From contig CAXHJY010001675.1 in NCBI GenBank assembly GCA_964016885.1, positions 19,157 to 83,156 on the forward strand: a stretch of 64,000 nt of DNA, in the 5' to 3' direction. Shown piece after piece: positions 5,416 to 62,262 of this stretch (its first letter is position 1; every line of letters begins with the position of its first letter). The stretch is from Eledone cirrhosa (Eukaryota). The position numbers and the translations under genes were made by a program. The notes below the pieces were generated by a model, which had not been told where the DNA came from, searched no databases, and saw nothing but the letters and a program-made list of their open reading frames with translations.

Positions 5416-7362
5416 ATGGAAACTGAGTTATGTGAAAACCAGATTAAATATGAAACGGACACTATTGTTTTTCCTGATGAAATATTTAAACAGATAAAAA
5501 AACCACCATATCACTGTGATATCTGTAAAAAGTCATTCTCTAAAAATAGTAACTTAACTCGACACAAACGTATTCATACTCGAGAGAAACCATATCACTG
5601 TGATATTTGTAAAAAGTCATTCTCTAAAAAAAGTAACTTAACTCGACACAAACGTGTTCATACTCGAGAGAAACCATATCACTGTGATATTTGTGGTAAA
5701 TCATTCTCCACAATAGTTCACTCAACTTCTCACAAACGCATTCATACAGGAGATAGGCCATTTCAGTGTGATGTCTGTGATAAATCATTTGCTATCGATA
5801 GTCACTTAACTATTCACAAACGTATTCATACAGGGGAGAAACCATATAACTGTGAAATCTGTGGTAGATCATTCTCTCAGACAAGTCACTTAACTACTCA
5901 CATACGTATTCATACAGGAGAGAAGCCATTTCACTGTGATGTTTGTGGTAAATCATTCTCTGTAACATGTAGTTTAACTAAACATAAACGCATTCATACA
6001 GGAGAGAAACCATATCATTGCGATATCTGTGGTAAATCATTCTCTATAGATAGTCACTTAACAACTCACAAACGCATTCATACAGGAGAGAAACCATTTC
6101 TCTGTGAAGTATGTGGCAAATCCTTCTCTCGAAGAAGTTACTTGACTTCTCATGAACGTATTCACACAGGAGATAAACCATATTACTGTAGTACCTGTGG
6201 TAAATCTTTCTCCCAAAATGGGGACTTAACTATTCACAAACGTATTCATATGAGAGATAAAACATATCAGTGTAAAATCTGTGGTAAAACATTTTCTAGG
6301 AGGGGTCCCTTGACTTTTCATCAACGCATTCATACAGGAGATAAAACAAACCACAGTGATATTTATGGTAAATCATTCTCAACCACCATTCTCTCAACTT
6401 CTCACAAAGGCATTCATACAAGAAAGAAACCATTTCACTGTGCTAAATCAATTTCTATAGATGGTCACTTAACTACTCATAAACCTGTTTGTACTGCAGA
6501 GAAACCATATCACTATGAGATTTGTAATAAATCATCCTCTCTAGATAGTCACTTAACTAAACACAAACAGATTCATACAAAAGAAAAGCCATATCAATGT
6601 GATATCTGTGGAAATTTATTCTCTACACATAGCCAATTATCTATTCATAAACACATCCATACTGGAGAGAAATCATATCAATGTGATATTTCTGGTAAAT
6701 CATTTTCTCAAAGTGGTAGCTTAACTACTCAGAAACTTATTCATACAGATGATAAATTGTATATCTGCAATATGTGTGGTGAATCATTCTCTCAAAAAAA
6801 TGTCTTCATTGCTCATCAATGTATTCATAAGGGAGAAAAGCCACATCACAGTAATATCTCTGATAATTCAATCTCTACAATAGCTCACTCAACTTCTTAC
6901 AAATACATTAATTCAGGAGATAGGCCATTTCAGTGTGATATCTGTGATAAATCATTTGCTATAGATAGTCACTTAACTATTCATAAACGTATTCATACAG
7001 GGGAGAAGCCATACCAGTGTGAGATCTGTGGTAAATCATTCTCTCAAGCAAATCATTTAACTACTCACATACGTATTCATACAGGAGAGAAGCCATTTCA
7101 CTGCAATATCTGTGGTAAATCATTCTCTGTTACATGTAGCTTAACAAAACACAAACGCATTCATACAGGAGAGAAACCATATCATTGTGATATCTGTGGT
7201 AAATCATTCTCTATAGATAGTCACTTAACTACACACAAACGCGTTCATACAGGAGAGAAGCCATTTCTCTGTGATATATGTGGTAAATCATTCTCTCGAA
7301 GAAATTACTTGACTTTTCATGAACACATTCATATTAAAGATACCATATATACTAGAATATAA
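5416..7362 (+). CDS. C2H2 zinc-finger array protein, 648 aa, 22 finger units (17 intact, 5 degenerate)
   Basis: Uninterrupted ORF of CxxC-x12-HxxxH repeats with TGEKP-type linkers and no recognisable effector domain. Units 11-13, 15 and 17 have lost Cys/His ligands. Confidence 0.95.
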
Positions 7363-11544: not shown

Positions 11545-12180
11545 TAGGCGGGAAGTCCCCCCAAAGCATTTGGGATGCCATCCAGTGCAGCCTGGCCTCA
11601 GACAGGCTCACGTGCTGGGTCGACCAGCACCGCCTTGCTTATTTCATGCAGCCTCCAAACCCCACAGTGGTGCCTGGCTCCATGCCTTGCCCTCCTTCTC
11701 CACTGGCACACAGCTGGATAACGATAGCCTGCGCATCGGCGTTTCTTTGAGGCTTGGCCTCCGGATCTGCGAGCCACATAAATGTTGCTGTGGATCCACC
11801 GTGGACTCTTTCGGCCTCCACCCGCTTTCCTGTCGCCACAGTGCCGGCCGCCTTCCACGCCATGCTGCCCTCAGCAAGGTCATAAAGCATGGCTTGGATG
11901 CTCCAGGCTTCCCTTCCCAGCTCGAGCCGGTGGGACTGGACCGAGGGGATGGCATGACCATCTTCCCGTGGATGGCAGTGGAGACTTCTGGTGTCCTTGG
12001 CCCTAGGGCTACCTGCCTACTCACCACCATAGGCCCTGAGCTGGCCAGCCGCAGATGTGAGCCTCGCGAGTTGGAATGGCTCTTTCAGCGCATCTCCCTT
12101 ACCATCCTCCGGGGAAACGCCTTCTCCATGCTGTCCGCCGGGGCTGTGGGGAGGCCAGCACGTAGGACCCCATTTGCTCA
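11545..12180 (+). mobile_element. CRE-clade (restriction-like endonuclease) non-LTR retrotransposon 3' fragment
   Basis: SGAWLHALP...LRLGL..CEPHKCCCG....GLHPLSC...RH...EP.GL.RGDG..TIFPW, AVET.G..G and QRIS..ILRGNA are hallmark CRE C-terminal motifs. Confidence 0.8.
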
Positions 12181-12534
12181 CCATACGGAGAAATGGAGAG
12201 GGCCAGAGAGATGGAGGCAATGACAGTGGGAGGTCGGCTGTTCTTTCATGTTTGCTTAGGTTACAATTACATTGTGATAGAAGCTGTGATAACCCTCTAA
12301 TGGCAATATTACATAGAATGTGGTTGTGACATCAAGCAGCTGAATCAGACGATATGTTGCAGTTACTTAGCGCAAATTTTTTTCTGCCTTTGTATCACTA
12401 TTTTTCTCTAAATATAGATTTTAAAGAATCCCCTTCTTTAAATCCATCAACCAATTACCCCAACCCATCCCAATCACCACCCTCTCCTACCACCAGAAAA
12501 TGTATAAATACCACCATATTACATTGACAGTCGT

Positions 12535-12581
12535 CTTCCTGGTGATTTCTCCCCAATGAAACAGTTCTAGTCTTGTAGAAG
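12535..12581 (+). ncRNA. Type-I hammerhead-like motif, family B (degenerate core CUGGUGA)
   Basis: CTTC-CTGGTGA-(damaged stem II)-GAA-ACAG/TTGT-A-GAAG. TATAAATA lies about 30 nt upstream. Downstream 80 nt are shared with 46953-47074. Confidence 0.55.
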
Positions 12582-12683
12582 CCATTTCTATAGTAAGTAC
12601 TTATACTCTACTATGTATTGAGTACCTTACTTACTGTGGTTACCCCCGATTGAACCTGGGATAAACACACACACACACATATA

Positions 12684-12930
12684 TGTTATATTTAAACTGA
12701 GTGTGGCTTTTCATAGATGCCGCTAAATCCCACTGCTGGTTTCTCCTCTTCCACGTGCGTCCAACTCATTAACACCGGGAGCTGCCAAAACTCATGTCCA
12801 CACCATTGCTGGTCACCACTAGAGAGAAGCCGATCTGCTGGCCCTTCCGGTCGAGCATCCTTCCGGCCAAGCACCCTTCCGGTCGAGCACTCCCCTGCTT
12901 CCGGCCACCGCACGCCACACCATACCCACA
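12684..12930 (-). repeat. 3' LTR
   Basis: TG...CA termini, direct repeat of 16503-16733. Confidence 0.9.
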
Positions 12931-15900
12931 CGCCCCCCTGATCTCAAGGATCAATTTCCCCCCCGTCCTTCTGCATATGAAAGTCTGCTGTCCAGGTTGG
13001 TGGTTTGCGACTTCTTTGCGATCTCCGCAGTGTTGGGCCACACTTTGGGTTTCCTCTTCCTCGGAGTCCGTTGACACAGTGATTCTACGGACATCCAGGA
13101 CATGACATGGTACTCCGTCCATGGACACATTTTTCTGGGAATTTATGGCCGTCACAGTTCCCCTTCCCCATTGAGATGTGCAACGTGCATCTGGGGGCTT
13201 AACCCAGACTTCTTCGCCCACCTGCACGAATGCACTCTCTCTCCCCACTGGCCGTTGAGGTGGCGTGCATGGGTGCCGCCACTCGTATCTGAATACTGCT
13301 CTGTGTGGCACCGATTCCTCGATCTGTCCCACCCAAGGGGACATGTTGTACCAGAACACTGCCTCCATTGGTGAGATATGGCCCCGCTCCGCCATTGCCT
13401 TGATCGTCCGGTGGTGTCGCTCCACAATTCCATTCCCACTCAGCCTGTGCGCTGCTCTGAAGAAACGGTCCACCTTCCATCCATCGAGCATCTCCCTCAG
13501 CGCCTCCAAGCAGAACGCTGCGCTGTTGTCCATCAGCAGTTCGTCCACAGGGCCCCGCTCCAAGAACACCTCTCTCAACGTCCGCATGATTTCCTCGGAA
13601 GTTCCAGTCTTCATCTCCCTCCATATCACCATCCGTCCTGGTCCACAGTCGACCATCGAGAGGTACGTTCCCTGTCGGTAGTGCGTTACATCCACCGCCA
13701 ATCACTTCCAGTCGCGATCCACCGGGAGGCTTCCCATTTCGTGCACATCCGGGGCGGGATCAATGGACTGACATAGGATGCAGCCTCTAACCACGCTTTG
13801 AACACTGTGTTTGTTAACGTCCGAGTCGATTCTCCTGGCTAGGAACAGGCTCCTATCCACTCCCATGTGGTGCATGTCATGCAACCCTTCAGATCCGACT
13901 CGGTCAACCGACACACGGCAGCTATCTCATCTTCTACCTCCTCCGGCGCTTCCATCCAGGCTTTCTTCACCCTAGTTAAGACGTCCGCCCTATTTTTCTC
14001 TGAGGGCATGAAAACTACACTCAGCCTCAGGTCGAACTCGGTGGCCAGCTCTCCTAAAGTTCCCAGGCAGCGCTTTATCAGCATCTCCGCCGCCCATCTC
14101 GTTCGCACTCTCTTCTCACTGGTGAGCACTGATCTCACCCATCCGAGTACAGTAGCCGAGTCAGTGCGTATCTCTATGGTGCGCAATCCCCACCTCAGGG
14201 CGAGGTTCACCCCTCTCAACACTGCGTCCAGTTCGGCCACATTGTTGTGGTTGCTGTCGTCCTTCTTCCTAAGCCAGGCTGCATCCTCGACCTCAACACC
14301 TCGCATCTCCAACATGACACCCAGCGCTATGCTGCTGGCATCGCACCATACGGTCCCGCTCTGCAATTTGGAACATACCAGCGTCCCCGCACTGGGTCAT
14401 CGGCCTTCACCCTCCCCACGATCTCCTGCCCCCACGATCTCCTGCATCATGGCCACCGTCCTCTCTCCCACTCTGTCACTCCAAGTCACTCCTCCCGCTC
14501 GTCTCTTGACATAGCTGCATGCCGTCCATAGCCACCCAGCAATCGGGTAGTGACCCACCAACTTTCCACACACCGAGAAAAGCTCCCGCCTACTCATACT
14601 TGGGCCCAGTTCTGGAACTTCATTTCCCCTCTGGAATACCAAGACGCCCGTCCTGTCTCGCCGTAGCCTAAGTCCCAGCGAGGCTCCTCCCTCCAACGCT
14701 TCTGACGGCTTCGCAGCCAGTCCATACCCCTGTAAATGGCTCGTGACCTCCGCCGCCAACACCACCAACTCGTCCACTAAGATGTCGTCAATGTAGGAGT
14801 TAATGGCCCTCTTCATCTTATTAGCCTTTCCCAGAATGGTCTTGAGGGCCGCCGCCACGATCTTCGGTGCAGAGCTCAGCCCGAAACCGAGCCTGGTCAG
14901 GCAATATGTCCGGCCCTTATACCTGACCAGCTGATACTGCCAGAGCTTCTCATCTATATGCAATTGCAAGTATGCTGACCTTAGATCTACGATTGCTGAA
15001 CCCCCCGTCATGTGTCTCCACTCACGCAGGGTTTCCCCACAGACATCCGTGACCTCGCCACCCATGTGGAATGACACGCGCTCGTTCAGCTCCCGAAAGT
15101 CCAGCACCGGCCTCACCTTGTTCTTTGTGGGTTGCGCCACCGCCATTAACAGCAATACTCCGCACTTCACCTCCTCTTTCCAGGGAAGCAGTATGCCCCC
15201 CTCAATCCATCTCTCTACCTCACGCTCAAACTCGCTCCTAATGTTTCCCTTCAATGTGTGTTGATAGCAGCCCACTTTGGTCTTCAGTTTTGGTGGTTCT
15301 CCCTTCCAGTACCACTCAACAACCCATCACTGCCCATCGAACACGGCCTTGAAGTCTTTGTCCTGCACAGTGTAAGCGGGGTATTTCTCCTCGTGGGCCT
15401 TCTGGTTCTCCTGTCGCGTACTCACAGCGCATACCGATGCAGCGCCGTCAAATGACACACCAACGTTGTTCACTGTGATGCCTCCTAGATGGCCAATTGC
15501 GTCCATGCCCATAACCATGCCGATCCCATCCACCACGCTGTTCACTACGATGGCAGAAAGCCTTATTTTCCTTCCCCGTACCGCTATTTCCATCTCGCTG
15601 CAACCTCGGCATTCAATTTTCCTACCATCGACTGCCCTTACGCTGCTCTTCCCTCTCCACGTCTGCACCACCCCCGCGGTCACCTGTGTCGTCGTACATA
15701 TTATTTCCGGCCTTGAGTCTCTACAGTCTCTAGCCATGTGCGGGCCCTGGCACCTAAAACAGCGACCTCTAAACGTTCGCGGGCGACCGCGTGCCGTGGT
15801 TGCCTCCCTTTCACCATTTCACTGCCAGCTGTCTTGAGCCTCTGTAGTTGCTATCGCCTCGACACTCTTCTTGGCATCTTCTGCTATGATCCGGGCTTGT

Positions 15901-16502
15901 TGCACCAGTGAACGCATTTCCATTTCTTTGTAACCCGGGACTTGCTGCAGTTTCACCGCTATGTCGTCTGCAAATCCATTTATGAACGCCAACCGCACCG
16001 TGCGTTCGCATTCCACCTGATATCCAGCCAACATGGCCAATCGCCGTATTTCCGCTGCGAAAATGTCAACGCGTTCACCGTTCCATCTAATTCTTGCCAG
16101 CTTAGCGAAAGCGGCTAACGGTCCCTCTGCGAACGCTTCCATCATGCGCCTCTCAATCTTTTGCGCATCTCTTTGGCTGTGTTCATCCAACTCAAGGAAG
16201 AGTACCAACGTGTCCCCTCGAGGTACAGTGCCATGAGGCCAGCCACATCTTCTATCTTCTGTAAGCTTACGACCAGCCGGACTTTTCGCAGCCAAGCGAC
16301 AACATCACCTTCACCGGTAAATGCCCTGATCGCTTCGCTTGTTCATAGTCTCGTCGCCATCCTAATTTGTCTTGTGGTACGTGATAAGAAAAACAACAGA
16401 CTCCTCTGTTTTTCCAGTAGCTTTTTTTTTTTTTTTCAATCAGATCTCAGTTTCCAGTGCCGAAATAGCTTGTGGTTAGAAAAAGCTATCTCACTTACCG
16501 CT

Positions 16503-17926: not shown

Positions 17927-18751
17927 ATGGAGGACGTTAAACACTTGGACATTTCTAACTCACCTGTTTCTACAAATATGGATGCAGTTACACAGATATA
18001 CAGTGGTGAGAAACCTTTACGTAGTGAAACATGTACTGAACAAGGATCATTACACAGAACTATTCCTGAATATAGTTGTGAGATTTGTAGGAAAACTTTC
18101 TCATCAGAACATGAAGTATCCACACACAACAACATACACATTAAAAACAAATCATGTCATTGTTATATATGTGGGAAATCTTTCACTAATAAATTTCATC
18201 TTGTTGAACATATACGCTGTCACACAGGAGAGAAACCGTTTCATTGTGAAATATGTGGAAAATCTTTCCCTAATAAATCTCATCTTGTTGTCCACATACG
18301 TAGACACACTGGAGAAAGACCCTTCCATTGCGAAATATGTGGGAAATCTTTTGTCGAAAACAGCAATTTAATTGCACACAAAAGAACACACACTGGAAAA
18401 AAGCCTTATCGTTGTGAAACATGTGGGAAATCTTTCACCCAGAATGCGAATCTTGTCGTACACATTCGTATTCATACTGGAGAAAGGCCCTTCCACTGTG
18501 AAATATGTGGGAAATCTTTCACTAATAAACATCACGTTGCTGACCACATACGTATTCATACTGGAGAAAGGCCCTTCCACTGTGAAATATGTGGGAAATC
18601 TTTTGTCTCTAACACTAATTTAAATGTACACAAAAGTACACACACTGGGGAAAAACACTTCCATTGTGAGATATGTGGGAAATCTTTTGTCTGTAACAGT
18701 AACTTAAATAAACACAAACAAACACACACACACTGGAGGGAAACATTTTAA
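17927..18751 (+). CDS. C2H2 zinc-finger protein, 274 aa, 8 fingers
   Basis: Eight CxxC-x12-HxxxH units with [14 protein letters not shown] linkers, single exon. Confidence 0.88.
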   Translation: MEDVKHLDISNSPVSTNMDAVTQIYSGEKPLRSETCTEQGSLHRTIPEYSCEICRKTFSSEHEVSTHNNIHIKNKSCHCYICGKSFTNKFHLVEHIRCHTGEKPFHCEICGKSFPNKSHLVVHIRRHTGERPFHCEICGKSFVENSNLIAHKRTHTGKKPYRCETCGKSFTQNANLVVHIRIHTGERPFHCEICGKSFTNKHHVADHIRIHTGERPFHCEICGKSFVSNTNLNVHKSTHTGEKHFHCEICGKSFVCNSNLNKHKQTHTHWRETF

Positions 18752-26139: not shown

Positions 26140-26972
26140 TATGAGGCCTGTGTTCTTACAGCCCTGTTATATGGATGTGAAACGTGGACAACTTAAAGGC
26201 ATCATATCAGGCAGTTGGAAAGATTCATCAGCATTATGTATGATCCATCCTGAACATCAAGTGGTCTTCTTACACACCTGATGCTGCGATACTGAGTATT
26301 GAGAGGAGGATTATAATGAACATGGTGTGTTGGGCTGGTCATGTGGTCAAAATGGAAGATGCAAGGCTGCCTAAACAGCTTTTTATGGGGAGCTGACCAG
26401 AGGAAAAAGGCCACAGCATAAAGCAAAAAGAATTATTATGGAAAACTGGGAGAGACTGGCTGAAGGCCATACATCACAGAGAAAGATCATCAAGTATGGA
26501 TGTGATGTCTTTGCGAAAAAGCGAGTGGAGCATGCTGTTTTGAAGTGTTCAATTCGTAAGCGGGACTCAAGTGCAATGCCTGCAAAAATTCAGCAAGAAT
26601 TAAGGTGCAATGTATGTGGCCGATTTCTCCTAACACCAACTGGTTTTGTTAACCATCAGAAATCACACGAGCCAGGAAGAAATAGAGCCAACTGTGAGAT
26701 GGTTCTATCATCACAGACTCCATGGTATATTTGCAGTGAGTATGGCTTAATTTGCAAGTCAGCGAGTGGTCTGACCAGAGATGGTAAAATGCATGAAAAC
26801 ACACCCCAGCCAGTTTTACCAGAAGACGAACAGTTCAAGTGTTACATCTGTGAACATATCTGCAAAAGAAAAGCTGGTCTGAAAAGTCACCTGCGTACAC
26901 ATGACTGTACAATGTTCAATGAAGGGATGGCATTTTTTTGACAAGTAGCAATCAACATGTATGTATGTACGT
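26140..26972 (+). mobile_element. Old 3' fragment of the zinc-finger-tailed RTE family
   Basis: YGCETW, WAGHVVKMEDARLPKQL, then three C2H2-like units ending KAGLKSHLRTH, short (TATG)n tail. Confidence 0.8.
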
Positions 26973-27788
26973 ACCTAATCAGCTACATATGAGTAAAGAT
27001 AAAAAATATTCGTCATCAAATGACAAGGACTAAAAAAGAAAAGGGCGCATTAGTTGGTCCCTTTAATATTTGAATCTGCTGCAATACATTAACACCAATG
27101 CATTAGTATACATTAAAATTAATTTAACTGATTCCAAAAATATCATTTTACGTCTGTTTTCCATACTTGCATGGTTGAAACGTGATTTAGTGAGCGGGGG
27201 TAGTATTGTACAACGGGATGCTCTTCCTTCATCTCCTCTGTGGCATTTATTCTATTGACACGGGAGGGGCGAAAGACAAAGGCAACCTGACATTACGTTG
27301 AATTATTAAATTAAATACTATAATACACTACTATTTCTGTCACTCCACTACTAACTCACGCATGAAATAGGGCAGTGTTTCCCAAAGTTGGTTCCACGAG
27401 ATAGGTATTTTTTGACAAAAATTAAGTTTTTTTTCTAAGAATAAATTCTCTCTTAAAAAAAAAAAAATTGTTGTTCCATTCAATGTTTTATTAAAATTAA
27501 GGTGGTAGCGATTACCCGTAAAACATAGATATGGGTTCTGTAACTTAATATCGTAAAGCGTTTTATCTGGCGCTCTATCGATTCTGCTATCCACCGCACT
27601 TGTAAATAAAAATAAAGGAGATGATAATAATAAAAACATTAACTGTAAAAGGTTCCACACCATATTTCTTTCCAAAATTCTCAATAACTATTATGTGGGT
27701 GTGTGTGCCACAAAAACACTAGTAACCAGAACTTTTGTGATACTCGTAACTTTGATTTAATTCGGGTAGACATATATCTTTTGATTGT

Positions 27789-28760
27789 CTAATAAGGGAT
27801 GTGGAACGGATATTCCGGGTGCTTCGACAAGTGTGGAACAGATTTATCAAATGTGAAATACCTGAAGACAATTTTCTCTTCTTTAATAGATGTCATGTCT
27901 TCTTTTGGGAGCTGAAAATTAAATATATCAAAATTTTCTTTGATCCGATTTGGATTGCTGCTTTTTGGAATGACTCTAATATCACACTGGATTAGATACC
28001 GCAACATAACCTGAGCAGCAGTTTTCTTATATTTCTTTCCTATTGCTCTCAGAGTGGGGTTTCGTAAAACTTCCAAGTCTGTGTCGCAACCTTCTACAGA
28101 GACATTAATCCTTCCTGGAGAACCTAGAGGAGCAAAAGCAGTGAGGTGAATATTTTTTTCCCGGCAAAATTTCTGTAGTTTTTTCTGATTTAGGTAAATA
28201 TGGCATTCAACTTGGTTCGTAAAAGGTTTGATTTTTTTGGCATTCTTACAGATTCGTTCAATTTGAACAGAGTTAAAATTCGATACGCCGATAAAACGGG
28301 TTTTGCCTTCATTCACCAAGTTCTCCAAAGCGTGCCATGTTTCAACAAAATCGTAATTTGCCAAAATCAATTGATTGTTTTCATCTTTGGGTAATTTAGT
28401 CCCATCTCCTATATTCTTTATTCCAAAAGGAGCATTTATTAGAAAGAGATCAAGGTAATCAAGTTGGAGATGTTTCAGGGATTGCATCAGAGATGGCCTC
28501 ACATCTTTTTTCGCCATGTCAGTCATCCATAGTTTGGTGGTGATGAACACGTCATTCCGTGACAACTTACCCGTTTTGAAATATTTTTTCAGGGCCTTAC
28601 CTATATAAGCTTCGTTGGCGAACAACTGAGCCGTGTCGATATGACGATAGCCAACATCTAGAGCTGTGGTTATAGCTAGTTCGACTTCTTCCTCATCTGC
28701 TGTATCCCATGTGCCAAGACCGATCATGGGCATGTCGATGCCAGTTATTTTAGCAGCCAT
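27789..28760 (-). CDS. Aldo-keto reductase family protein (AKR1-like), intronless, with catalytic Tyr->Phe and His->Asn
   Basis: MPMIGLGTW, GYRHIDTA, FITTKLW, LQLDYLDLFL, IGVSNFN, NQVECH, PLGSP, AQVMLRY, IPKS..RIKEN, HPEYPF. Full-length 323-aa ORF. Confidence 0.93.
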   Translation of the reverse strand: MAAKITGIDMPMIGLGTWDTADEEEVELAITTALDVGYRHIDTAQLFANEAYIGKALKKYFKTGKLSRNDVFITTKLWMTDMAKKDVRPSLMQSLKHLQLDYLDLFLINAPFGIKNIGDGTKLPKDENNQLILANYDFVETWHALENLVNEGKTRFIGVSNFNSVQIERICKNAKKIKPFTNQVECHIYLNQKKLQKFCREKNIHLTAFAPLGSPGRINVSVEGCDTDLEVLRNPTLRAIGKKYKKTAAQVMLRYLIQCDIRVIPKSSNPNRIKENFDIFNFQLPKEDMTSIKEEKIVFRYFTFDKSVPHLSKHPEYPFHIPY

Positions 28761-29739
28761 AGTTTGAAATAAACTTTAAAAAATTGTAAAAACAATAAAA
28801 GGGTCGAAACTATATTTTTTAAAAGGTGGCAGCTAGTTGTCGTTGAATCGATGTATAGAACTTTAAACAATTTAAATACACAATTTTCAAAATTTTTTGT
28901 GCGATATTATTTTTTCAGCAATCTTGATAAGTATATATTGTATTAGGATGAAAGACTTAACCGAAAAACAAAAGCGAAACAATAACATAGATAATTCAAG
29001 ATCACTGATATCAGGTGTGGCGAAATGAAAACAAAATAACGAACAACTCGGATAACCGACTGCGCTGGTCAACAGTAAGAGGAGAAGTAAAAAGAGGGGG
29101 GGGGGAATAAAGAGAATAAGTTAGAGATTGAATTATAGAAAAAAAATTAAGAGAAGCTGAGAGAAAGAAAACAAATAAATAAAGTAAAGCTGAACGGCGT
29201 TGCTAACTGTAGTAAGAAAGAGATAGAGAATGATGAGTAGTAGTAAGTGGAGATGTCATAGATAAACTAAAGATAAAAGGTGAGGGAGAAAAAACACATA
29301 TACACAAAGTTAGAGGAGTAGCGAATTAAGAAATCCTAAAAGCCTTTGTTATAACCCATTCAGTATATTTAAAATATGGTGACAATAAGGAATACATTAA
29401 CACACACTTTGACGTTGCTATCAGCATTATGGTCACGGCCTCACCTACTACTATCATTATTACTTTCTGCGAAGCACTCACAATACTTTACCAGCCAGCC
29501 AATGTAATCGATAACTGGAAAACAACGTTTACTTTCTGTTTTGATGGATTTATGGACCCTCCATTGTTTTCGACGATCACCCGAACGTCCGATTCGTGAA
29601 TTAATGTGTAAGTGGTTGAGTATTCTACAGACATATGTACCTATAACGTAATTCTCAAACAGAATCACCATGACAATATATGACAAAGATGAACCTTAGT
29701 ATTACAGATACAATCGATCTTACTGACTTCCAAACAGTT

Positions 29740-43766: not shown

Positions 43767-44775
43767 TCATCATCATCATCATCATCAACGTTTAACGTCC
43801 GTGTTCCACGCTTGCATGGGTTTGGACGGGGGTATTCCCACTTGAGGCAAGAGTGATTGTCTTGCTCGCATAGGACTGTCTGGCAGGTTTTCTACAGTTG
43901 GATGCCCTTCCTAACACCAACCACATTTACAGTGTGGGACTGGGAGGTTTTTACCGTGTTGCCTACACGGCCACATTACAGCGTGGACTGTGTGTTTTTG
44001 TCATGACACCTACACGATCTCATTTGTTTCGGCCTGGATGTTGTGGCACCAACATAACTTTACATAGGAGGGGGTGGTGTGGGTGGTGGGACGGGGGTGT
44101 ATTTTGTTAGAGATGCCTACTGGCTGTAGTAGGTTTTACTATGTATTTAGGTAAGGCGGGTCTTCTCTATTACTGAGTACCGCCAAAGGTCTCGGTCCAG
44201 TGACATTGTCTTGGAGAGGTGTAAGTGTGTGAAGTCGGAGTTTATCAGCTCGTCCCAGGATTTTCTAGGTCTGCCTATTCCGTGGCTACCGTCTATCTTT
44301 ATTGCCCTGCACTTTGTTATACAGCTATCGACTTTCATGCGCATCACGTGTCCGTACCAACGTAGCCTTCTCTCGAGTAAACAACATCTGATCCCTCTTA
44401 TTTCTAATTTTTTCCTTAGTTCGTTTATGCTTTGCCGTTCACGTATATTACTATTACACGTCCAGCGGAGCATGCAAGCTTCGTTCCTCTCTAGTCTGCG
44501 TATATCCTCTGCGCACAATGCCCAGGTCTCACTGCCATGCAACATTGCTGTTCATATGCAGGCATCATACAACCTGCCTTTCATTTTTAGGGAGAACCCT
44601 CTAGCGGCTAATAGTGGTATAAGCTCTCTGAACTTTTTCCACCCAGTTCTGACTCTAGCTACTGTACTTTCGGAGCACCCTCCCCCACTGCTGATTTTGT
44701 CACCCAGGTAACGGAAGCTGTCCACTATTTCTATAGAGCCCTCTGCGCAATTGAAAGAGTTAGTATTTTGTGGGC
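43767..44775 (-). mobile_element. RTE LINE 3' portion
   Basis: [36 protein letters not shown], 3' UTR, (GAT)n tail. Confidence 0.9.
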
Positions 44776-44777
44776 AT

Positions 44778-44778
44778 G

Positions 44779-44809
<31 letters not shown>

Positions 44810-45010
44810 GTATATATATGTATGTATATATATATATATATATGTATGTATATATATATATGTATATATATGTATGTATATATATATATATATATGTATG
44901 TATATATATATATGTATATATATGTATGTATATATATATATATATATATGTATGTATATATATGTATATATATGTATGTATATATATATATATATGTATA
45001 TATATGTATG

Positions 45011-45041
<31 letters not shown>

Positions 45042-45046
45042 GTATG

Positions 45047-45077
<31 letters not shown>

Positions 45078-45200
45078 GTATGTATATATATATATGTATG
45101 TATATATATATATATATGTATATATATATGTATGTATATATATATATATGTATATATATATGTATGTATATATATATATATGTATATATATGTATGTATG

Positions 45201-45235
<35 letters not shown>

Positions 45236-45306
45236 GTATGTATATATATATATATGTATATATATGTATGTATGTATATATATATATATGTATATATATA
45301 TGTATG

Positions 45307-45337
<31 letters not shown>

Positions 45338-45342
45338 GTATG

Positions 45343-45377
<35 letters not shown>

Positions 45378-45821
45378 GTATATATATATGTATGTATATA
45401 TATATATATATGTATATGTATGTATGTATATATATATGTATATGTATGTATGTATGTATATATATATATATGTATATGTATGTATGTATATATGTATATA
45501 TATGTATGTATGTATATATGTATATATATGTATGTATGTATATATGTATATATATGTATGTATGTATATATGTATATATATGTATGTATGTATATATGTA
45601 TATATATGTATGTATGTATATATGTATATATATGTATGTATGTATATATGTATATATATGTATGTATGTATATATGTATATATATGTATATATGTATGTA
45701 TGTATATATGTATATATATGTATGTATGTATATATATATATATATATGTATATATATGTATGTATGTATATATATGTATGTATGTATATATATATATATA
45801 TCATTATTCGATGTTCAAAGT
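44778..45821. repeat. About 1-kb (TA)n/(TATG)n array
   Basis: Direct reading. Confidence 0.98.
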
Positions 45822-49194: not shown

Positions 49195-52100
49195 GCGGGG
49201 ACATAGAAATAATCGGGCTGGATGCCCGATCGCGCAGTTAAACCACTGGGAGTGAAGAACCCCTAGCCCTTGTTAGGGCATTCTTCTAGGAGAAGGCATC
49301 TCAGGAAACTGGGTTAACTCCGATATAAAACCTGCGGCTCAGTAGTTACCGATGATGTTGATCTTTTCTTCTTTTCGGGTTATAGCTGCTGTCGCTCAGA
49401 GAGTGGGATTGGCTCAGTGCACAGTCTTTCCTCACTTTAAAAATATTCGTCACGCACAGGCATTGCACGAGTGCATTAATAATCATTAATAGTGTACTAT
49501 TATTATTATTATTACTATTATTATTACTTTTTTTTTTTTTTTTTCCAATTCAATGATATTCCAGAACAATGTAAAAGAGATAATTGGCAATTTAGGTTCT
49601 GGAACAAAAAAGATCATTGGCAATAAGGGCAGGGGCCCCAAGTTATCACAGCCTGGGCCCGCTTGTCATCGTGCCACAGGGCATTTAGTCTTGGCTGCTG
49701 GAACGTACGGACGCTGCTTGACAGGGATTCTTTGGAGCGTCCTGAACGAAGGACCACTCTTGTTGCAAAGGAGCTTCGACGTTACGATCTTGACATCGTG
49801 GCTTTATCTGAGACGAGGTTAGCTGGAGATGGTCATCTTACGGAATTTTGTGGAGAATATACATTCTTCTGGAAAGGAAGAGATGAAGGAACCAGAAGAG
49901 AGGCTGGGGTAGGATTTGCTGTTAAGACTGTACTTGTGAATAAATTAGAAGAATTCCCAGTAGGGATTAGTGAGCGTCTTATGTCCATGAGAGTTCCGCT
50001 GGACAAGGGAAGATATGCTACCCTGGTGAGTGTGTATGCTCCAACTATGAATTCTGTCGATGAAGAAAAACTGTCCTTTTACCATGCCTTGAAAGGTGTT
50101 CTAAGAAATATCCCTCAGGCAGACAAAGTCATCGTGCTTGGTGACTTTAATGCTAGAGTGGGTAGGGATTTTAACACATGGAATGTAATCGGAAGGCATG
50201 GGGTGGGAAAGTGTAACAACAATGGTATGCTCCTGCTGCAGATGTGTGAGGAGCTGGATCTGTGTGTTACCAACACCATGTTCCAACAAAAGAACAAATT
50301 CAAGACCACACGGATGCATCCTGCATCTAAGGAATGGCATCTTTTGGACTACGTCCTAGTCAGGATGCGTGACAGACAGGATGTGCAGTGTGTTCGTGTT
50401 CTTCGTAGAGCTGAGTGCTGGACGGACCACCGCCTCGTACGCGCAAAAGTGAAACTAATCACCAAACGTAAAATCCGGGCTCCTGGTGTTACCCTGCCCA
50501 AAAGATTGAATGCTGCTCGTCTTAAGGATAAAAATGTGAAGAGGACATTGGAAGAAGAGATGCAGGCTGCAGATCTTGGTGAGGATTGGCCGACCCTTAA
50601 AAAGTCGGTTTATGATGTAGGCAGGCGTGTTCTGGGATTGGTGCAGAGAAAACATCAGGACTGGTTTAATGAGAATGATGTACATATAGAAGACTTGTTG
50701 GCTGATAAGAGGCGTGCTCTGTCACGCTACTTGACGGCAAAACCACAGGAGAGGAATACGTTGCATGAGGAGCTCAGGGATGTAAAATCACGTGTTAGGC
50801 GGAGTCTTTCTCAGATGAAGGATCAGTGGTGGAGTGAGAAGGCTGGTGAGATACAAACTGCGTCTGATTCCAATAACACAAAGCTGTTGTACAGTCTCTT
50901 GCGTGAGGTTTATGGACCGTCTTCTTCTCTGGTGACACCGCTTCACAGCAAGGATGGCAAAGAACTTCTTCGTGACTCACAGGGAATTCTATGAAGGTGG
51001 CGAGAGCACTTTGATGATCTTTTGAATCAGCCGTCTGTCGTCAGTGAAGATTTCCTCAATCTCATTCCAGAAAGTCCTGTGAAAGTAGCTCTCGCAGAAC
51101 CTCCGACGCTTGTGGAGGTTGCAGTGGCTATTTCGAAGCTGAACAGTGGAAGATCTCCAGGTATGGATGGCATACATGCTGAGCTCCTACAATATGGTGG
51201 TGAGAGACTCCTGCAACATCTTCACTCTTTGTTTGGAAGGATATGGGATAATGAATCCGTGCCTGAGGACTGGAGAGATGCAGTAATGGTGGTCTTGTAC
51301 AAGGGAAAGGGTAACAGGAATGATTGTGGGAACTACAGAGGTATATCATTGCTTTCTGTCGTAGGGAAAGTTTTATGTAGGGTGCTTCTGGACCGTCTGC
51401 TGACACACATTGCAGATTGTGTTCTTCCTGAAAGTCAATCTGGTTTTCGTGCTGGACGCGGCACTACTGATATGATCTTCTCAGCTAGACAGCTCCAGGA
51501 GAAGTGCATGGAGCAAGGTTTGGATATGTATCAGGTTTTTGTCGATCTGACAAAGGCTTTCGATACTGTCAACAGAGATGCATTATGGAAGGTTCTCCAG
51601 AAACTTGGTTGCCCTGATAAGTTCCTTGCTTTAGTTAGGTCTTTCCATGACGACATGAAGGCTTGGGTTAATGTCGGAGGTAACATATCGGAGCCTATCT
51701 CAGTAAAAAATGGAGTGAAACAGGGGGATATTCCAGCACCGACCCTGTTTGCCATATACTTCGCAATGGTTTTCTGTATTGCATTCAGGAATTGCGAGCA
51801 TGGTGTTTACATCCGATATCGAACCTCAGGCAGCATATTTAACATCAGGCGCTTTGCTGCGAAGACAAAAGTATTTACATCAATCATAAGAGACCTCTTG
51901 TATGCAGATGATTGCGATCTTGTAGCGCACACAGAGAGTGATATGCAGCACATTTTGAATGCATTTTCTGACGCTTGCACTGCCCTGGGTTTGACTGTCA
52001 GTCTCAAGAAAACCGTCGTCATGTACCAACCTGCCCCTAGTAAGCAGTACACTGAACCAAACATCTATGTGTATGGCAAACGACTTGGAGTGGTTGATCA

Positions 52101-53110
52101 GTTTGTCTACCTGGGAAGCACTGTCAATCGATACGGCAACCTTGACAGTGAAATCTCACTTAGGATTAGGAAAGCAAGTGATGCTTTCGGAAAGCTAGAA
52201 AGGCGACTCTGGGGTCGGCGAGACATATGCAGGAGGACAAAGGTAAAGGTGTACAGGGCATGTGTACTCTCTTGTCTTCTTTATGCCTGCGAGACCTGGG
52301 TCACATATCGACGCCACCTTAGGCAATTGGAGCGTTTCCATCAGATGTGTCTCAGACGGATCCATGGCGTTCACTGGAGGGACCACATCAGTGATGTCGA
52401 GATTTTGGAAAGCTCTATGTGTGACAGTATAGAAGCTCTTGTGCTTAAGCAACGACTCCGTTGGAGTGGTCACCTTGCCAGGATGAAGGATTCTAGAAGA
52501 ATACCAAAACAACTCTTCTATGGAGAGTTGGTTAAAGGAAAACGACCGCCACATAAACCAAAAAAGAGGTATAAGGATTCCTTGAAAGCCTCTCTGAAAG
52601 ACGCTAACATCTCTGCTGATACATGGGAAAATATTGCTGCTGATCGTAATAAATGGAGAAAGACTGTATATGAGGGAAAAGTTGCCTTTGAGGCATCTCG
52701 AATTGCACACAAGAAAGTAAAGCGGGATGTGAGGAAGGGCATTGCTGTTGCACTTCCAGACGGCGAGGGTCCTCCTATGGTGCTGACATGCAGCGTCTGT
52801 GCGAGACTCTGCCTAAGCAAAGCTGGACTCGAAAGTCATCTTCGCAGTCATAAAGTAAGACCAGTGGTTGACTCCCAGGCTGCTGTTGGAGATGCTACTC
52901 ATCATGCTTGCCAAACATGTGGTAGAGAATGTAAATCAGCAGGAGGGCTCAAGCGACATGCAAAAGTACACAAACTCCAACCACAACCGACTATTCCCAG
53001 TGAATGTTTTGGTTGCCGACTCTGTGCAAGACATTTTAGATCATTGGCTGGGCTAAAAAGCCACATTCGATCGCAGCACTGTTAGTTGCTATCGTGTGTG
53101 TGTGTAGATA
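49192..53110 (+). mobile_element. Near full-length RTE LINE (APE-RT-3xC2H2) with one in-frame stop
   Basis: GCWNVRTL, ALSETR, VYAPT, LGDFNARVG, LDYVLV, TDHRLV, FVDLTKAFD, GVKQG, LYADD, YLGS, three C-terminal C2H2 fingers. ORFs 49663-50994 and 51022-53085 share a frame across TGA 50992-94. Confidence 0.95.
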
Positions 53111-54416: not shown

Positions 54417-56190
54417 ATTATGAGAGACTGATGAATGTGGAGAACGAATGGGAGAGAGAGAAATTACCCTTGGTAGATCCGACAGAGGGACCAGCTATTG
54501 AGATTGACGAATATAGGGTCCAAGAGGCGATTAGGGAAATGAAAAATGGTAAGGCGGCCGGACCATCGGGAATAGTTGCTGAGATGCTGAAGGCATCAGG
54601 GGACGTAGGCACTAAACTGGTTGCACGCATCATCAATCAGGCTATATATGGTGGTGTCATACCCAAAGACTGGTGCAGCAGTATTCTCATAAATTGCTAC
54701 AAAGGTAAAGGGGATGCTTTGGAGAGGAGCAATTATAGGGGTATAAAACTGATAGATCAGGTTATGAAAGTGGCAGAAAGGATTTTAGCACAACTAATTA
54801 GAGAAAGGGTCAAACTAGATGAGATGCAGTTTGGTTTTGTGCCTGGGAAGAGTACAACAGATGCCCTCTTCTTGGTGAGACAAATGCAAGAGAGGTTCTT
54901 AGAGAAGAATAAGCCACTATACTTAGCCTTTGTTGACCTAGAGAAGGCCTTTGATAGGGTACCCCGATCTGTCATCTGGTGGTCCCTAAGGAAGCTAGGT
55001 GTTGAGGAATGGCTTGTGAGGACAGTGCAAACTTTGTACAGAGGTTCTCTCAGTAAAGTCAGGGTAGGTATGGAGTTTAGTGAGGAATTCCAGATACAAG
55101 TAGGGGTACATCAGGGTTCGGTCCTCAGCCCGCTCTTGTTCATTATAGTCCTCCAAGCCATAACAGAGGAGTTTAAGACTGGCTGTCCATGGGAACTTCT
55201 CTACGCTGACGATCTGGCTCTTATAGCAGAATCAGTAGAGGAGCTAGAGAATAAATTCCGGCTATGGAAACAGCAGTTGGAAGCAAGAGGACTGAGAGTA
55301 AATCTAGCTAAGACAAAAGTGTTGATGAGTAGAAAAGAGGACAAAACCCTGATTCCGTCAGGGAAATGGCCATGTTCGATATGCAGAAAAGGAACTGGCA
55401 TAAATTCTATAAAATGCACACAATGCAGGTCCTGGGTACACAAGAGATGTAGCGGGATAGCAGGCAAACTAACAGGTAGGGAGAAATATGTATGCAGTAG
55501 ATGTACAGGGAAATTAGACAGTAGAAGTCGCACTGATAGACACATTTTTCAAATGCGAGAGGGCGCTATAGAAGTGGTGGATAGCTTCTGGTACCTAGGA
55601 GATCAGATTAGCATGGGAGGAGGGTGTTCCGAGGCCATAGTATCTAGAATAAGGACGGGTTGGAAGAAGTTTAGGGAGCTGCTTCCTCTGTTGACGAAGA
55701 AGGGTTTCTCCCTGCGTACGAAAGGCCGGTTGTATGATGCCTGTGTGAGGAGCGCGATGCTGCATGGTAGTGAGACATGGGCAGCAACCGCAGAGGATAT
55801 GCGACGGCTGGAGAGAAATGAGGCAAGCATGCTCCGTTGGATGTGCAATGTAAATGTGCGTGAACGACCCAGCATAAATGTGTTGAGAGAGAAACTGTGT
55901 CTGAGAGGGATAGAATGTAGTGTACGGGAGAGGAGACTGAGGTGGTATGGACATGTGATGCGCATGGAGGATGACCGATGGGTGAAGAAGTGCCAGTTGA
56001 AGGAAGACGTGGTAGAGGTAGACCACGAAAAACATGGGCGGAGGTGGTGAGAACAGACCTCAGATCATTGAAGCTCACGGTGGAGATGACGAGGGACCGT
56101 GACGAGTGGAGAGATGCTGTGCTGAATAAAACCCGTCCCACCCTTGCAAGCAGGGAAAAGCGGACGTAAAATGATGATGATGATGATGAT
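54417..56190 (+). mobile_element. Young 5'-truncated RTE LINE (RT with embedded PHD finger)
   Basis: Stop-free RT (NYRGIKL, FVDLEKAFD, GVHQGS, LYADD), a C4HC3 finger, one frameshift near 55995, (GAT)n tail. Confidence 0.93.
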
Positions 56191-56762: not shown

Positions 56763-56900
56763 AACTGATCAAGCCAGATCAGTTCCTGTATGAGCAAGGC
56801 ATGGTCAGCCGACCAGACACTGCCCACAACAGGACAACCCGTCTAACCCATGCTAGCGTGGAAGAACGGACGTAAAACGGTGATGATGATGATGATGATG
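56760..56900 (+). mobile_element. RTE 3' terminal fragment
   Basis: CCGTCTAACCCATGCTAGCGTGGAAGAACGGACGTAAAAC followed by (GAT)n. Confidence 0.75.
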
Positions 56901-61086
<4,186 letters not shown>

Positions 61087-61088
<2 letters not shown>

Positions 61089-62262
61089 CTCTTTTACTCT
61101 TTTACCTGTTTCAGCCATCCGGCTGAGGCCATGCTGGGGCACTGCCCTTGTTGCTACACATTTTATCTCCAGCCTGTATAGGTTGGCCACTGGTGTAAGA
61201 GGGAGTTTGTTGCTGCTGCCCTTAGGTTTCCCTCGTGTCTTGCTGTGGGCTCATCCGGGATCCTGGATAACAAGGTGTCGAGATGTTTCTTAAAGACATC
61301 CACCTCCACGTCATGCAAGTCTTTCAGATGCCTCGGCAGCCTGTTGAAGAGTTGAGGGCCCTTGAATCCCAGGCTATTGCAATACCTGCTCCTTATTCTA
61401 GATGTGGAAGACGGGACCTTTGGCACCACACAGTGACGTCCTGTTCGACGGTTGGTCCAGCTCCCAATGCCAAAGTTTGGTGCTAGTCCCTCCAGGATTT
61501 TCCACATGTAGATCACTGCGTATCTCTCCCGTCTTCGCTCCAAGGAGTAGAGGTTCAGTTCCTTCAGCCTCTCCCAGTAGCTTGTCTCCCTCATCTTGGC
61601 AATCCTCTTGGTGTAGCTTCGCTGGATTGCCTCAAGCTCTGTGGTTAGTTTCACACTATGGGGTGACCACAGCTGGGAGCAGTAGTCCAGGCGGCTTAGG
61701 ACAAAAGTCCTCCACAGTGTCAACATGGTGTCTCGATCTCTTGTAAGGAAAGTCCTCAAGATCCAGCCAGCGAATCGTCTACATGCTGTCGCCACCTTCA
61801 TGATGTGTGAAGAAAAAGATGCATCATCGCTCATGTCTATGCCCAGGTCTCGTATCGATTTTGACACGGGGATATCGGTCCCTCCTGGTCCTGTGTAGCT
61901 GTGTTCCGCTATATTTGTGTTTGTGTTTGCAGGTTTGTATTGTAGGGCTTGGAATTTGCCAGCATTAAACTGCATGTTGTTTTCTTCCGCCCATCTGTAT
62001 ATGGCATCCAGATCCTGCTGTAAGAGGGCAGCGTCAGCCGGGTTTTTGATTGCCTGTGCTACCTTAGTGTCATCAGCATAGCTAGTGAGGGATGTTGTTG
62101 CATGCACCACAGAGGGCATGTCCGAGAGAGCCACCAAAAACAGTAGTGGTCCCAGGACTGTCCCCTGAGGCACCCCACTTGTTATCGGTGTTTCCCTCGA
62201 GAGGGCCCCATTTGCTGCGACTGCCTGGCTTCTGTCCCTCAGGAAGCCATGCAGCCACTCAC
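61087..62262 (-). mobile_element. CR1/L2-group LINE, 5'-truncated, intact RT 3' half
   Basis: [50 protein letters not shown]; tail of (GAGTAAAA) units. Confidence 0.9.

Follow-up and report, generated by a model that had tools for sequence, protein, structure and literature searches.

Aldose reductase activity is nearly abolished by the Y48F replacement, and Kv-beta proteins carry Asn at the position of the tetrad His. The Tyr of the canonical AKR1 tetrad, Asp-Tyr-Lys-His, is a proton donor (title of PDB 2ACU; accessible text of PMC8524200), and the same accessible text states that the His orients the substrate in aldo-keto reductases (AKRs) and that the codeinone reductase tetrad mutants D51N, K86M and H119F show trace activity only. 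The portion of PMC3499756 that was available yielded nothing on tetrad mutants, and a literature search in which subscription papers lay mostly outside the scope returned no Y48F/H110N kinetics. Natural tetrad variants are described: AKR1D1 has Glu in place of His, and poppy DRR has Pro in place of His and Met in place of Lys (PMC8524200, in part). Kv-beta/Hyperkinetic (AKR6) is an AKR that holds NADP(H) and reports its state (PMC9317154, in part). The tetrad Tyr is regarded as essential, and according to these partial sources AKR1D1, DRR and Kv-beta all keep it.

Here we describe an AKR1-like gene in the window, by which we mean the whole 64-kb stretch of DNA that was analysed. Like AKR1D1 and DRR, its protein combines natural tetrad replacement with a retained fold and cofactor site; those two keep Tyr and are active enzymes, whereas the window protein has neither Tyr nor His (PMC8524200, accessible text). 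Kv-beta also retains the catalytic Tyr (PMC9317154, in part), which the window protein does not, and the best matches of the window protein in sequence and fold are AKR1-type, unlike the AKR6 Kv-beta. Judged from sequence and predicted structure, its fold and descent make it an AKR, though not a canonical AKR1 reductase. Our preferred reading, to which we assign a probability of about 0.45, is that it is a constrained NADP(H)- and ligand-binding pseudoenzyme predicted to have little or no ordinary carbonyl-reductase activity. A selected gene without Tyr and His would reveal other uses of the AKR barrel, and it comes with built-in comparators, namely sister-clade proteins that have Tyr/His (59% identity) and a paralogue (90%).

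The gene and its catalytic residues

The gene is a single intact, unbroken open reading frame of 323 aa on the minus strand (28760-27789; Table 1), and a PF00248 match covering residues 13-294 (201 bits against a cut-off of 24) places it in the AKR superfamily. Its tetrad reads D-F-K-N. Alignments with pig aldose reductase and a termite AKR are without gaps at both substituted sites, identifying F47 with the catalytic Tyr and N109 with the catalytic His and ruling out misalignment as the cause. The four residues had been named in an earlier note made from the sequence, and the reading frame, the codons and two runs of one sample agree with it. Read contigs of run X1 (28285-28658) and run X2 (28424-28657) span both codons with 0 deviating letters, which rules out sequencing or assembly error; the two runs represent one sample, possibly the window's own source, and not a second animal. 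From a different sample, run X4 contributed two 151-base records (27948-28225) that match exactly and do not reach the catalytic codons, and RAD-seq run X5 contained almost nothing over the reading frame. The matching runs listed included no RNA run, which carries no information on expression.

The same note had maintained that A-to-I editing could restore neither residue, and the codons confirm this: A-to-G changes leave TTC as Phe and convert AAT only among Asn, Asp, Ser and Gly, so that rescue of Tyr or His by editing is ruled out. As a separate observation, editing of AAT (28434-28436) would in principle turn Asn109 into Asp, Ser or Gly; AKR1D1 has an acid (Glu) at this position. By the definition of a pseudoenzyme used here (PMC10211241, in part), the sequence qualifies, since conserved catalytic residues are absent.

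Table 1. Positions of the gene, its tetrad codons and associated features in the window
Feature	Position	Strand	Basis
AKR1-like (beta/alpha)8 barrel, single-exon ORF, 323 aa	27789..28760	-	ORF, PF00248, predicted model
D42 (GAC), tetrad Asp, retained	28635..28637	-	alignment
F47 (TTC) at catalytic Tyr position	28620..28622	-	gap-free alignment; Phe in 0/159 background homologues
K76 (AAA), tetrad Lys, retained	28533..28535	-	alignment
N109 (AAT) at catalytic His position	28434..28436	-	gap-free alignment; His in 159/159 background homologues
Codons 19-26, beta1-alpha1 loop; 6/24 bases differ from second copy	28683..28706	-	listed differences
Codons 264-276 (IPKSS..R..EN), NADP(H) adenosine/2'-phosphate end, retained	27933..27971	-	sequence comparison
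T-rich tract, its final AG 13 nt upstream of the ATG; putative 5'-UTR intron splice acceptor	28774..28803	-	sequence alone
Stretch also present as second copy, ~10% diverged	27673..28891	.	paired contigs, same sample

Fold, cofactor site and pocket

An AlphaFold model built on a 100-row alignment (mean pLDDT 92.8) predicts a (beta/alpha)8 barrel that matches aldose reductase 1AH3 at a TM score of 0.91; a model with such an alignment indicates compatibility with the fold, not function. AKR1B1 (1AH3, 1ADS, 2ACU) and the termite AKR 5KET have the same barrel (TM 0.91-0.92, 40-45% identity). The tetrad Asp and Lys and the cofactor residues of AKR1B1 align with those of the window protein, whereas Tyr48, His110 and Lys21 are replaced by Phe, Asn and Asp. 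Trp111 is also replaced by Ala and Asp216 by Gly, both of which are common to the Tyr/His sister clade.

Every motif quoted in the earlier note (GLGTW, SNFN, NQVE, PLGS, IPKS and RIKEN) is present in the translation, so its view that the cofactor motifs are preserved stands for those motifs and not for residue 19, an atypical Asp. Apart from this residue, the NADP(H)-contact residues are conserved in sequence, binding itself being a prediction: G16, T17, D42, S160, N161, Q183, F209, P211-P215, I264-S267, R272 and N276 are those of the background or of the sister clade. Within codons 264-276, we take the residues other than the Lys of the IPKS stretch to contact the adenosine/2'-phosphate end of NADP(H). 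The equivalent Lys has a role in binding this end (PMC8524200, in part). Asp was found at position 19, Lys in AKR1B1, in 0/159 background homologues; the cofactor site is therefore not wholly typical, and Asp19 could weaken cofactor binding.

The pocket changed along the branch leading to the window gene (F45Q, Y47F, H109N, F123L and F301Y). Together with the retained nicotinamide contacts, Asp42 and Lys76, this remodelling would suit a non-canonical reductase that carries out Tyr-independent hydride transfer to quinones, iminium ions or similar pigment or defence intermediates, any proton coming from Lys76 or water. Y55F and Y55S mutants of an AKR retain quinone-reductase activity (PMC11202113, accessible text); Tyr-to-Phe mutants can thus keep such activity, and calling the protein dead may be wrong. 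The Y55F mutant of AKR1C2 has been reported at one tenth of wild-type efficiency, a value doubted by the citing review (PMC9915212, in part). DRR reduces a C=N bond despite its replaced Lys and His, yet DRR and AKR1D1 each retain Tyr (PMC8524200, in part), and the literature examined, part of it in partial text, contained no natural AKR lacking both Tyr and His with measured activity. We regard a non-canonical reductase as unlikely.

Relatives of the gene

The closest full-length proteins among the matches listed are ENA/Logan clusters P0003, P0005, P0006, P0007 and P0009 (56-59% identity), which form the sister clade, probably come from other cephalopods by their place in the tree, and retain Tyr and His in 5/5. 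A search for shorter proteins added Octopus bimaculoides XP_014788932.1 (P0219; 69% identity over residues 198-323). In a 29-row tree, this protein and the window gene pair at 100/99 and the pair is sister, also at 100/99, to the P0003-type clade; in a second tree, the window group is nested in a mollusc AKR1-like clade. From these placements we take an octopod to be the likely host. The cephalopod setting assumed earlier is thus borne out by the clade with the O. bimaculoides fragment. A check of relatives for F47 and N109, proposed in the same place, went the other way, as the presence of Tyr/His in the five nearest full-length relatives argues against a broadly conserved pseudoenzyme. In these comparisons the Tyr and His change is confined to the branch of the window gene, at some depth along it.

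XP_014788932.1 shares derived residues with the window protein, such as N281, but consists of a C-terminal fragment (142 aa, from a contig of 1,775 bases) without the catalytic region. Four conserved residues that the window protein retains are lost in it (P211L, P265S, L284F and a deletion at K246), and its end branch measures 0.38 against 0.097 for the window gene. Being fragmentary, with these losses and the longer branch, it looks decayed. The best 120 matches of either homologue search included no full-length named Octopus protein, and this, together with the decayed relative, suggests that the gene may be dispensable in octopods.

Rarity of the double replacement

Among the best 120 homologues, His was present in 120/120 and Tyr in 118/120. 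The homologue set listed 187 distinct proteins, 164 of which (295-360 residues) were kept and 23 excluded by length; the tetrad of these 164 reads DYKH in 162 and DDKH in 2, with His in all and Tyr in 162, which puts the state of the window protein far from chance. Position 47 is Tyr in 157 of the 159 background homologues and Phe in 0. Two clusters with Magallana gigas members, P0094 and P0114, have Asp aligned to the catalytic Tyr and a Tyr two residues before it; the Asp of these oyster proteins may mark a shifted or a lost catalytic residue.

In a more distant set, 147/150 50% representatives were scanned, the other three having been part of the first set. The aligned domains that cover the four tetrad sites number 169, of which 138 read DYKH, 11 are gapped and 20 carry a substituted residue; Tyr and His are both replaced in 7/169 and DFKN occurs in none, with the caveat that distant degenerate sequences may include pseudogenes or faulty gene models. 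The closest analogue, P0265 (DFKQ, 47% identity), resembles the window protein in having Phe for Tyr and an amide for His. Its place in the tree is outside the mollusc clade, and grouping it with the window gene was rejected (p-AU 0.038; quick tree, simple model), so that shared ancestry is rejected and DFKQ is likely convergent. On these sequences, the double loss of Tyr and His is rare but likely of more than one origin.

Degenerate tetrads (DFKQ, DHKQ, DNKQ, DDKN and DYKN) were seen in the AKR1-like proteins P0265, P0365, P0388, P0259, P0336 and P0398, and P0259 and P0336 each consist of four tandem AKR domains, all degenerate. Degenerate proteins of this AKR1-like kind thus turn up repeatedly in animal-type sequences, so that the result of a single assay would bear on a larger group. 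No exact copy of the 323-aa protein was found in the protein collection searched, and the search of 50% representatives gave nothing nearer than the earlier homologues. In a scan of metagenomes, none of the 80 loci returned was close (35-43% identity), and no second AKR piece was found within the window.

Selection along the branch

Sites with at least 80% conservation in the background were treated as conserved, and changes were polarised with 16 mollusc outgroups, excluding 16 sites at which the change lay on the sister stem or was ambiguous. On the branch of the window gene, polarised changes affected 5/80 conserved against 22/56 variable sites (Fisher p 4e-6); in all, 37 polarised changes fell on this branch and 17 on the sister stem. 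The unpolarised counts were 7/82 and 36/70. Where three sister proteins agree, the window protein differs at 3/48 near-invariant sites and then, with falling conservation, at 4/34, 22/71 and 36/70. The three near-invariant changes are Y47F, Y106F and H109N; the chance that three such changes include both Tyr and His is 0.003, and that they include any two tetrad residues is 0.015.

Sequence tests on the branch and between the two copies described below agree in detecting purifying selection. The barrel core and cofactor contacts appear to be under purifying selection, and the gene under constraint as opposed to being a simple pseudogene. A neutral pseudogene with a frame open by chance, which we consider very improbable, would not be expected to accumulate long-branch changes that shun conserved sites (p 4e-6). 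An open frame by itself says little, P(no stop) being 0.16, and this value, the decayed look of the O. bimaculoides relative, a copy-to-copy dN/dS near 1 and the equal divergence of coding and flanking sequence would all be compatible with neutral decay. Avoidance of conserved sites after duplication (P 0.007; p 0.008-0.055) would nevertheless speak against it, as does the lack of coding gaps in either copy across 768 bases. The retained pseudo-enzyme proposed by the earlier note is upheld as regards constraint with both acid-base residues replaced; the dN/dS near 1 between the copies leans against a broadly conserved one.

A second, diverged copy

Paired contigs of the same sample run along the gene and its flanks (Table 1), one identical to the window and the other ~10% different, the likeness of the latter ending 131 bases upstream of the ATG. 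The window-identical contig has a depth of 13.5-15 in X1 and 8.8-11.1 in X2, against 6-7.5 for the diverged contig, so that the second copy reaches ~half (X1) to two-thirds (X2) of the depth of the window copy. This lower depth suggests that the second copy may be hemizygous or the window copy doubled. From the 10% divergence and the unequal depth, we infer that the second copy is a paralogue and reject an allele.

The paired contigs share their starts and ends and the listed differences begin 31 letters in, from which we infer identical ends of 30 bases. One pair begins at 28424 with its first listed difference at 28454, and the end 28424-28453 contains N109; His was therefore likely lost before the duplication, and N109 is likely common to the second copy. 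The Tyr-to-Phe change may be recent and private to the window copy.

The listing gave 19 of about 80 coding differences between the copies, across four pieces. Of these 19, 15 are nonsynonymous and 4 synonymous, giving a dN/dS of about 1.3 (1.2-1.45; 95% interval 0.43-5.6). Coding divergence (80/768, 10.4%) equals that of the flanks (9.2% and 10.5%), which with a dN/dS of ~1 would argue against strong overall constraint. The dN/dS check that the earlier note had proposed thus came out near 1 on a small sample of 19 changes, against a broadly conserved pseudoenzyme. By contrast, only 1/15 amino-acid changes between the copies lies at a conserved site (p 0.008 counting the identical contig ends, 0.055 otherwise), and the identical ends fall on conserved motifs (30/62 codons against 65/261; permutation p 0.005). 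The 768 coding bases compared are free of gaps, whereas gaps are listed within the 131 upstream bases. In the window copy, conserved-site changes after duplication number at most 3, against ~10.6 expected in ~50 neutral substitutions (P 0.007 if the two copies evolve at the same rate). Constraint seems to have persisted after His was lost, and a fixed core with fast-changing variable sites would fit the copy comparison best, a pattern that is also in keeping with a Tyr-independent reductase.

The 24-base beta1-alpha1 pocket loop holds 6/19 listed changes (binomial p 0.03, the region having been picked post hoc). Residue 19, Asp in the window copy, is Asn in the second copy and in 4/5 sister proteins, indicating that Asp19 is derived in the window copy.

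These results bear on a further explanation, that a working, Tyr-using AKR with His already replaced by Asn was duplicated and that a single base change recently removed Tyr from the window copy, which also acquired Asp19 and is beginning to decay, with the second copy being the enzyme. N109 is likely common to both copies, the derived Asp19 contrasts with Asn in the second copy, and the decayed look of the O. bimaculoides relative fits; a very recent loss of Tyr would not disturb the constraint signal, and active AKRs tolerate replacement of His (Glu in AKR1D1, Pro in DRR; PMC8524200, in part). However, the time since duplication would be a small part of the branch (by estimate, roughly 0.1 changes per column per copy against 0.55 for the whole branch), the window copy has no further sign of decay and has the deeper coverage in both runs, and Tyr and His are among only three near-invariant changes, which fits a single joint change of role. 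Recent inactivation is thus a serious competitor, to which we give perhaps one chance in a few. If the second copy keeps Tyr, the window gene would be a commonplace case of a duplicate in decay, and the enzyme it copies only slightly unusual.

Origin of the single-exon gene

The earlier note called the gene intact and intronless and proposed that it was retro-derived. The coding frame is unbroken, and the coding region has no introns; intronless is valid for the coding region only. Retroposition itself was not borne out: matching read contigs held no spliced joints and no spliced or intron-bearing parent at 80% likeness or above, a search by which a distant parent would be missed, no poly(A) tail was visible after the reading frame in the window sequence, and the repeats around the gene were all short and AT-rich, the best being a 13-mer with its copies 2.3 kb apart, none of them convincing as a target-site duplication. 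In an old retrocopy both of these traces would be gone. P0003, which has Tyr/His, is called whole on a 62,385-base ENA contig, which suggests that the sister clade is single-exon as well and that this state is old. The gene looks like the representative of an older clade in this lineage, and retroposition, if any, was likely old and separate from the catalytic loss.

A proposed mode of action

In our preferred reading, a constrained ligand-binding pseudoenzyme, NADP(H) would still be seated on S160/N161/Q183/F209/K266/R272/N276, and Asp42 and Lys76 would be retained for their second role in holding the cofactor ribose. In place of Tyr and His, Phe and Asn would preserve the shape of the pocket while supplying no group that protonates a carbonyl oxygen; with no acid in the pocket, an aldehyde, ketone or steroid-like ligand that bound there would stay in place without being turned over. 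The His-to-Asn change would likely be earlier than the gene duplication, and pocket loops that diverged between the copies afterwards would fit different ligands.

Frog rho-crystallin and the enzyme-crystallins of cephalopods are precedents for enzyme recruitment, and a lens crystallin or bulk structural protein would be a special case of this same pseudoenzyme reading. The predicted fold is stable and catalysis is likely lost, but only two gene copies were seen, and we consider this special case a long shot. The literature search, with subscription papers mostly outside its scope, linked no AKR to cephalopod lenses and found no cephalopod AKR of this type.

Rather speculatively, an octopod lineage could have converted a housekeeping AKR1 into a small family of diversifying NADPH proteins that lack Tyr and His and serve as a redox sensor or as a hydride donor to quinone or iminium metabolites, pigment intermediates for example, an idea we hold with little confidence. 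If true, the family would constitute a natural, selected double knockout of the active site that combines a fixed cofactor core with fast-changing pocket loops, and at least one convergent counterpart would exist among other animals.

Surroundings of the gene in the window

Two C2H2 multi-finger genes, each a single open reading frame, lie at 5416-7362 (+; 648 aa) and 17927-18751 (+; 274 aa). A GC-rich block (52-55%) at ~12000-16150 (-) contains broken reading frames with RVT_1 and DUF7047 matches, together with a piece resembling an integrase, and is likely a decayed LTR retroelement. LINE-type elements were seen at 49981-53085 (+; endonuclease and reverse transcriptase with C-terminal zinc fingers) and 54431-56050 (+; reverse transcriptase carrying a PHD-like finger), and a LINE-type piece with a zinc-finger tail lies 850 bases downstream of the AKR gene (26438-26941, +). 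Very long TA/TG microsatellites at ~56900-61100 and 44730-45800 yield spurious long reading frames, and GC content is only 6% in 58001-60000, within a TA/TG tract. Single-exon C2H2 genes and long TA/TG repeats fit octopus genomes.
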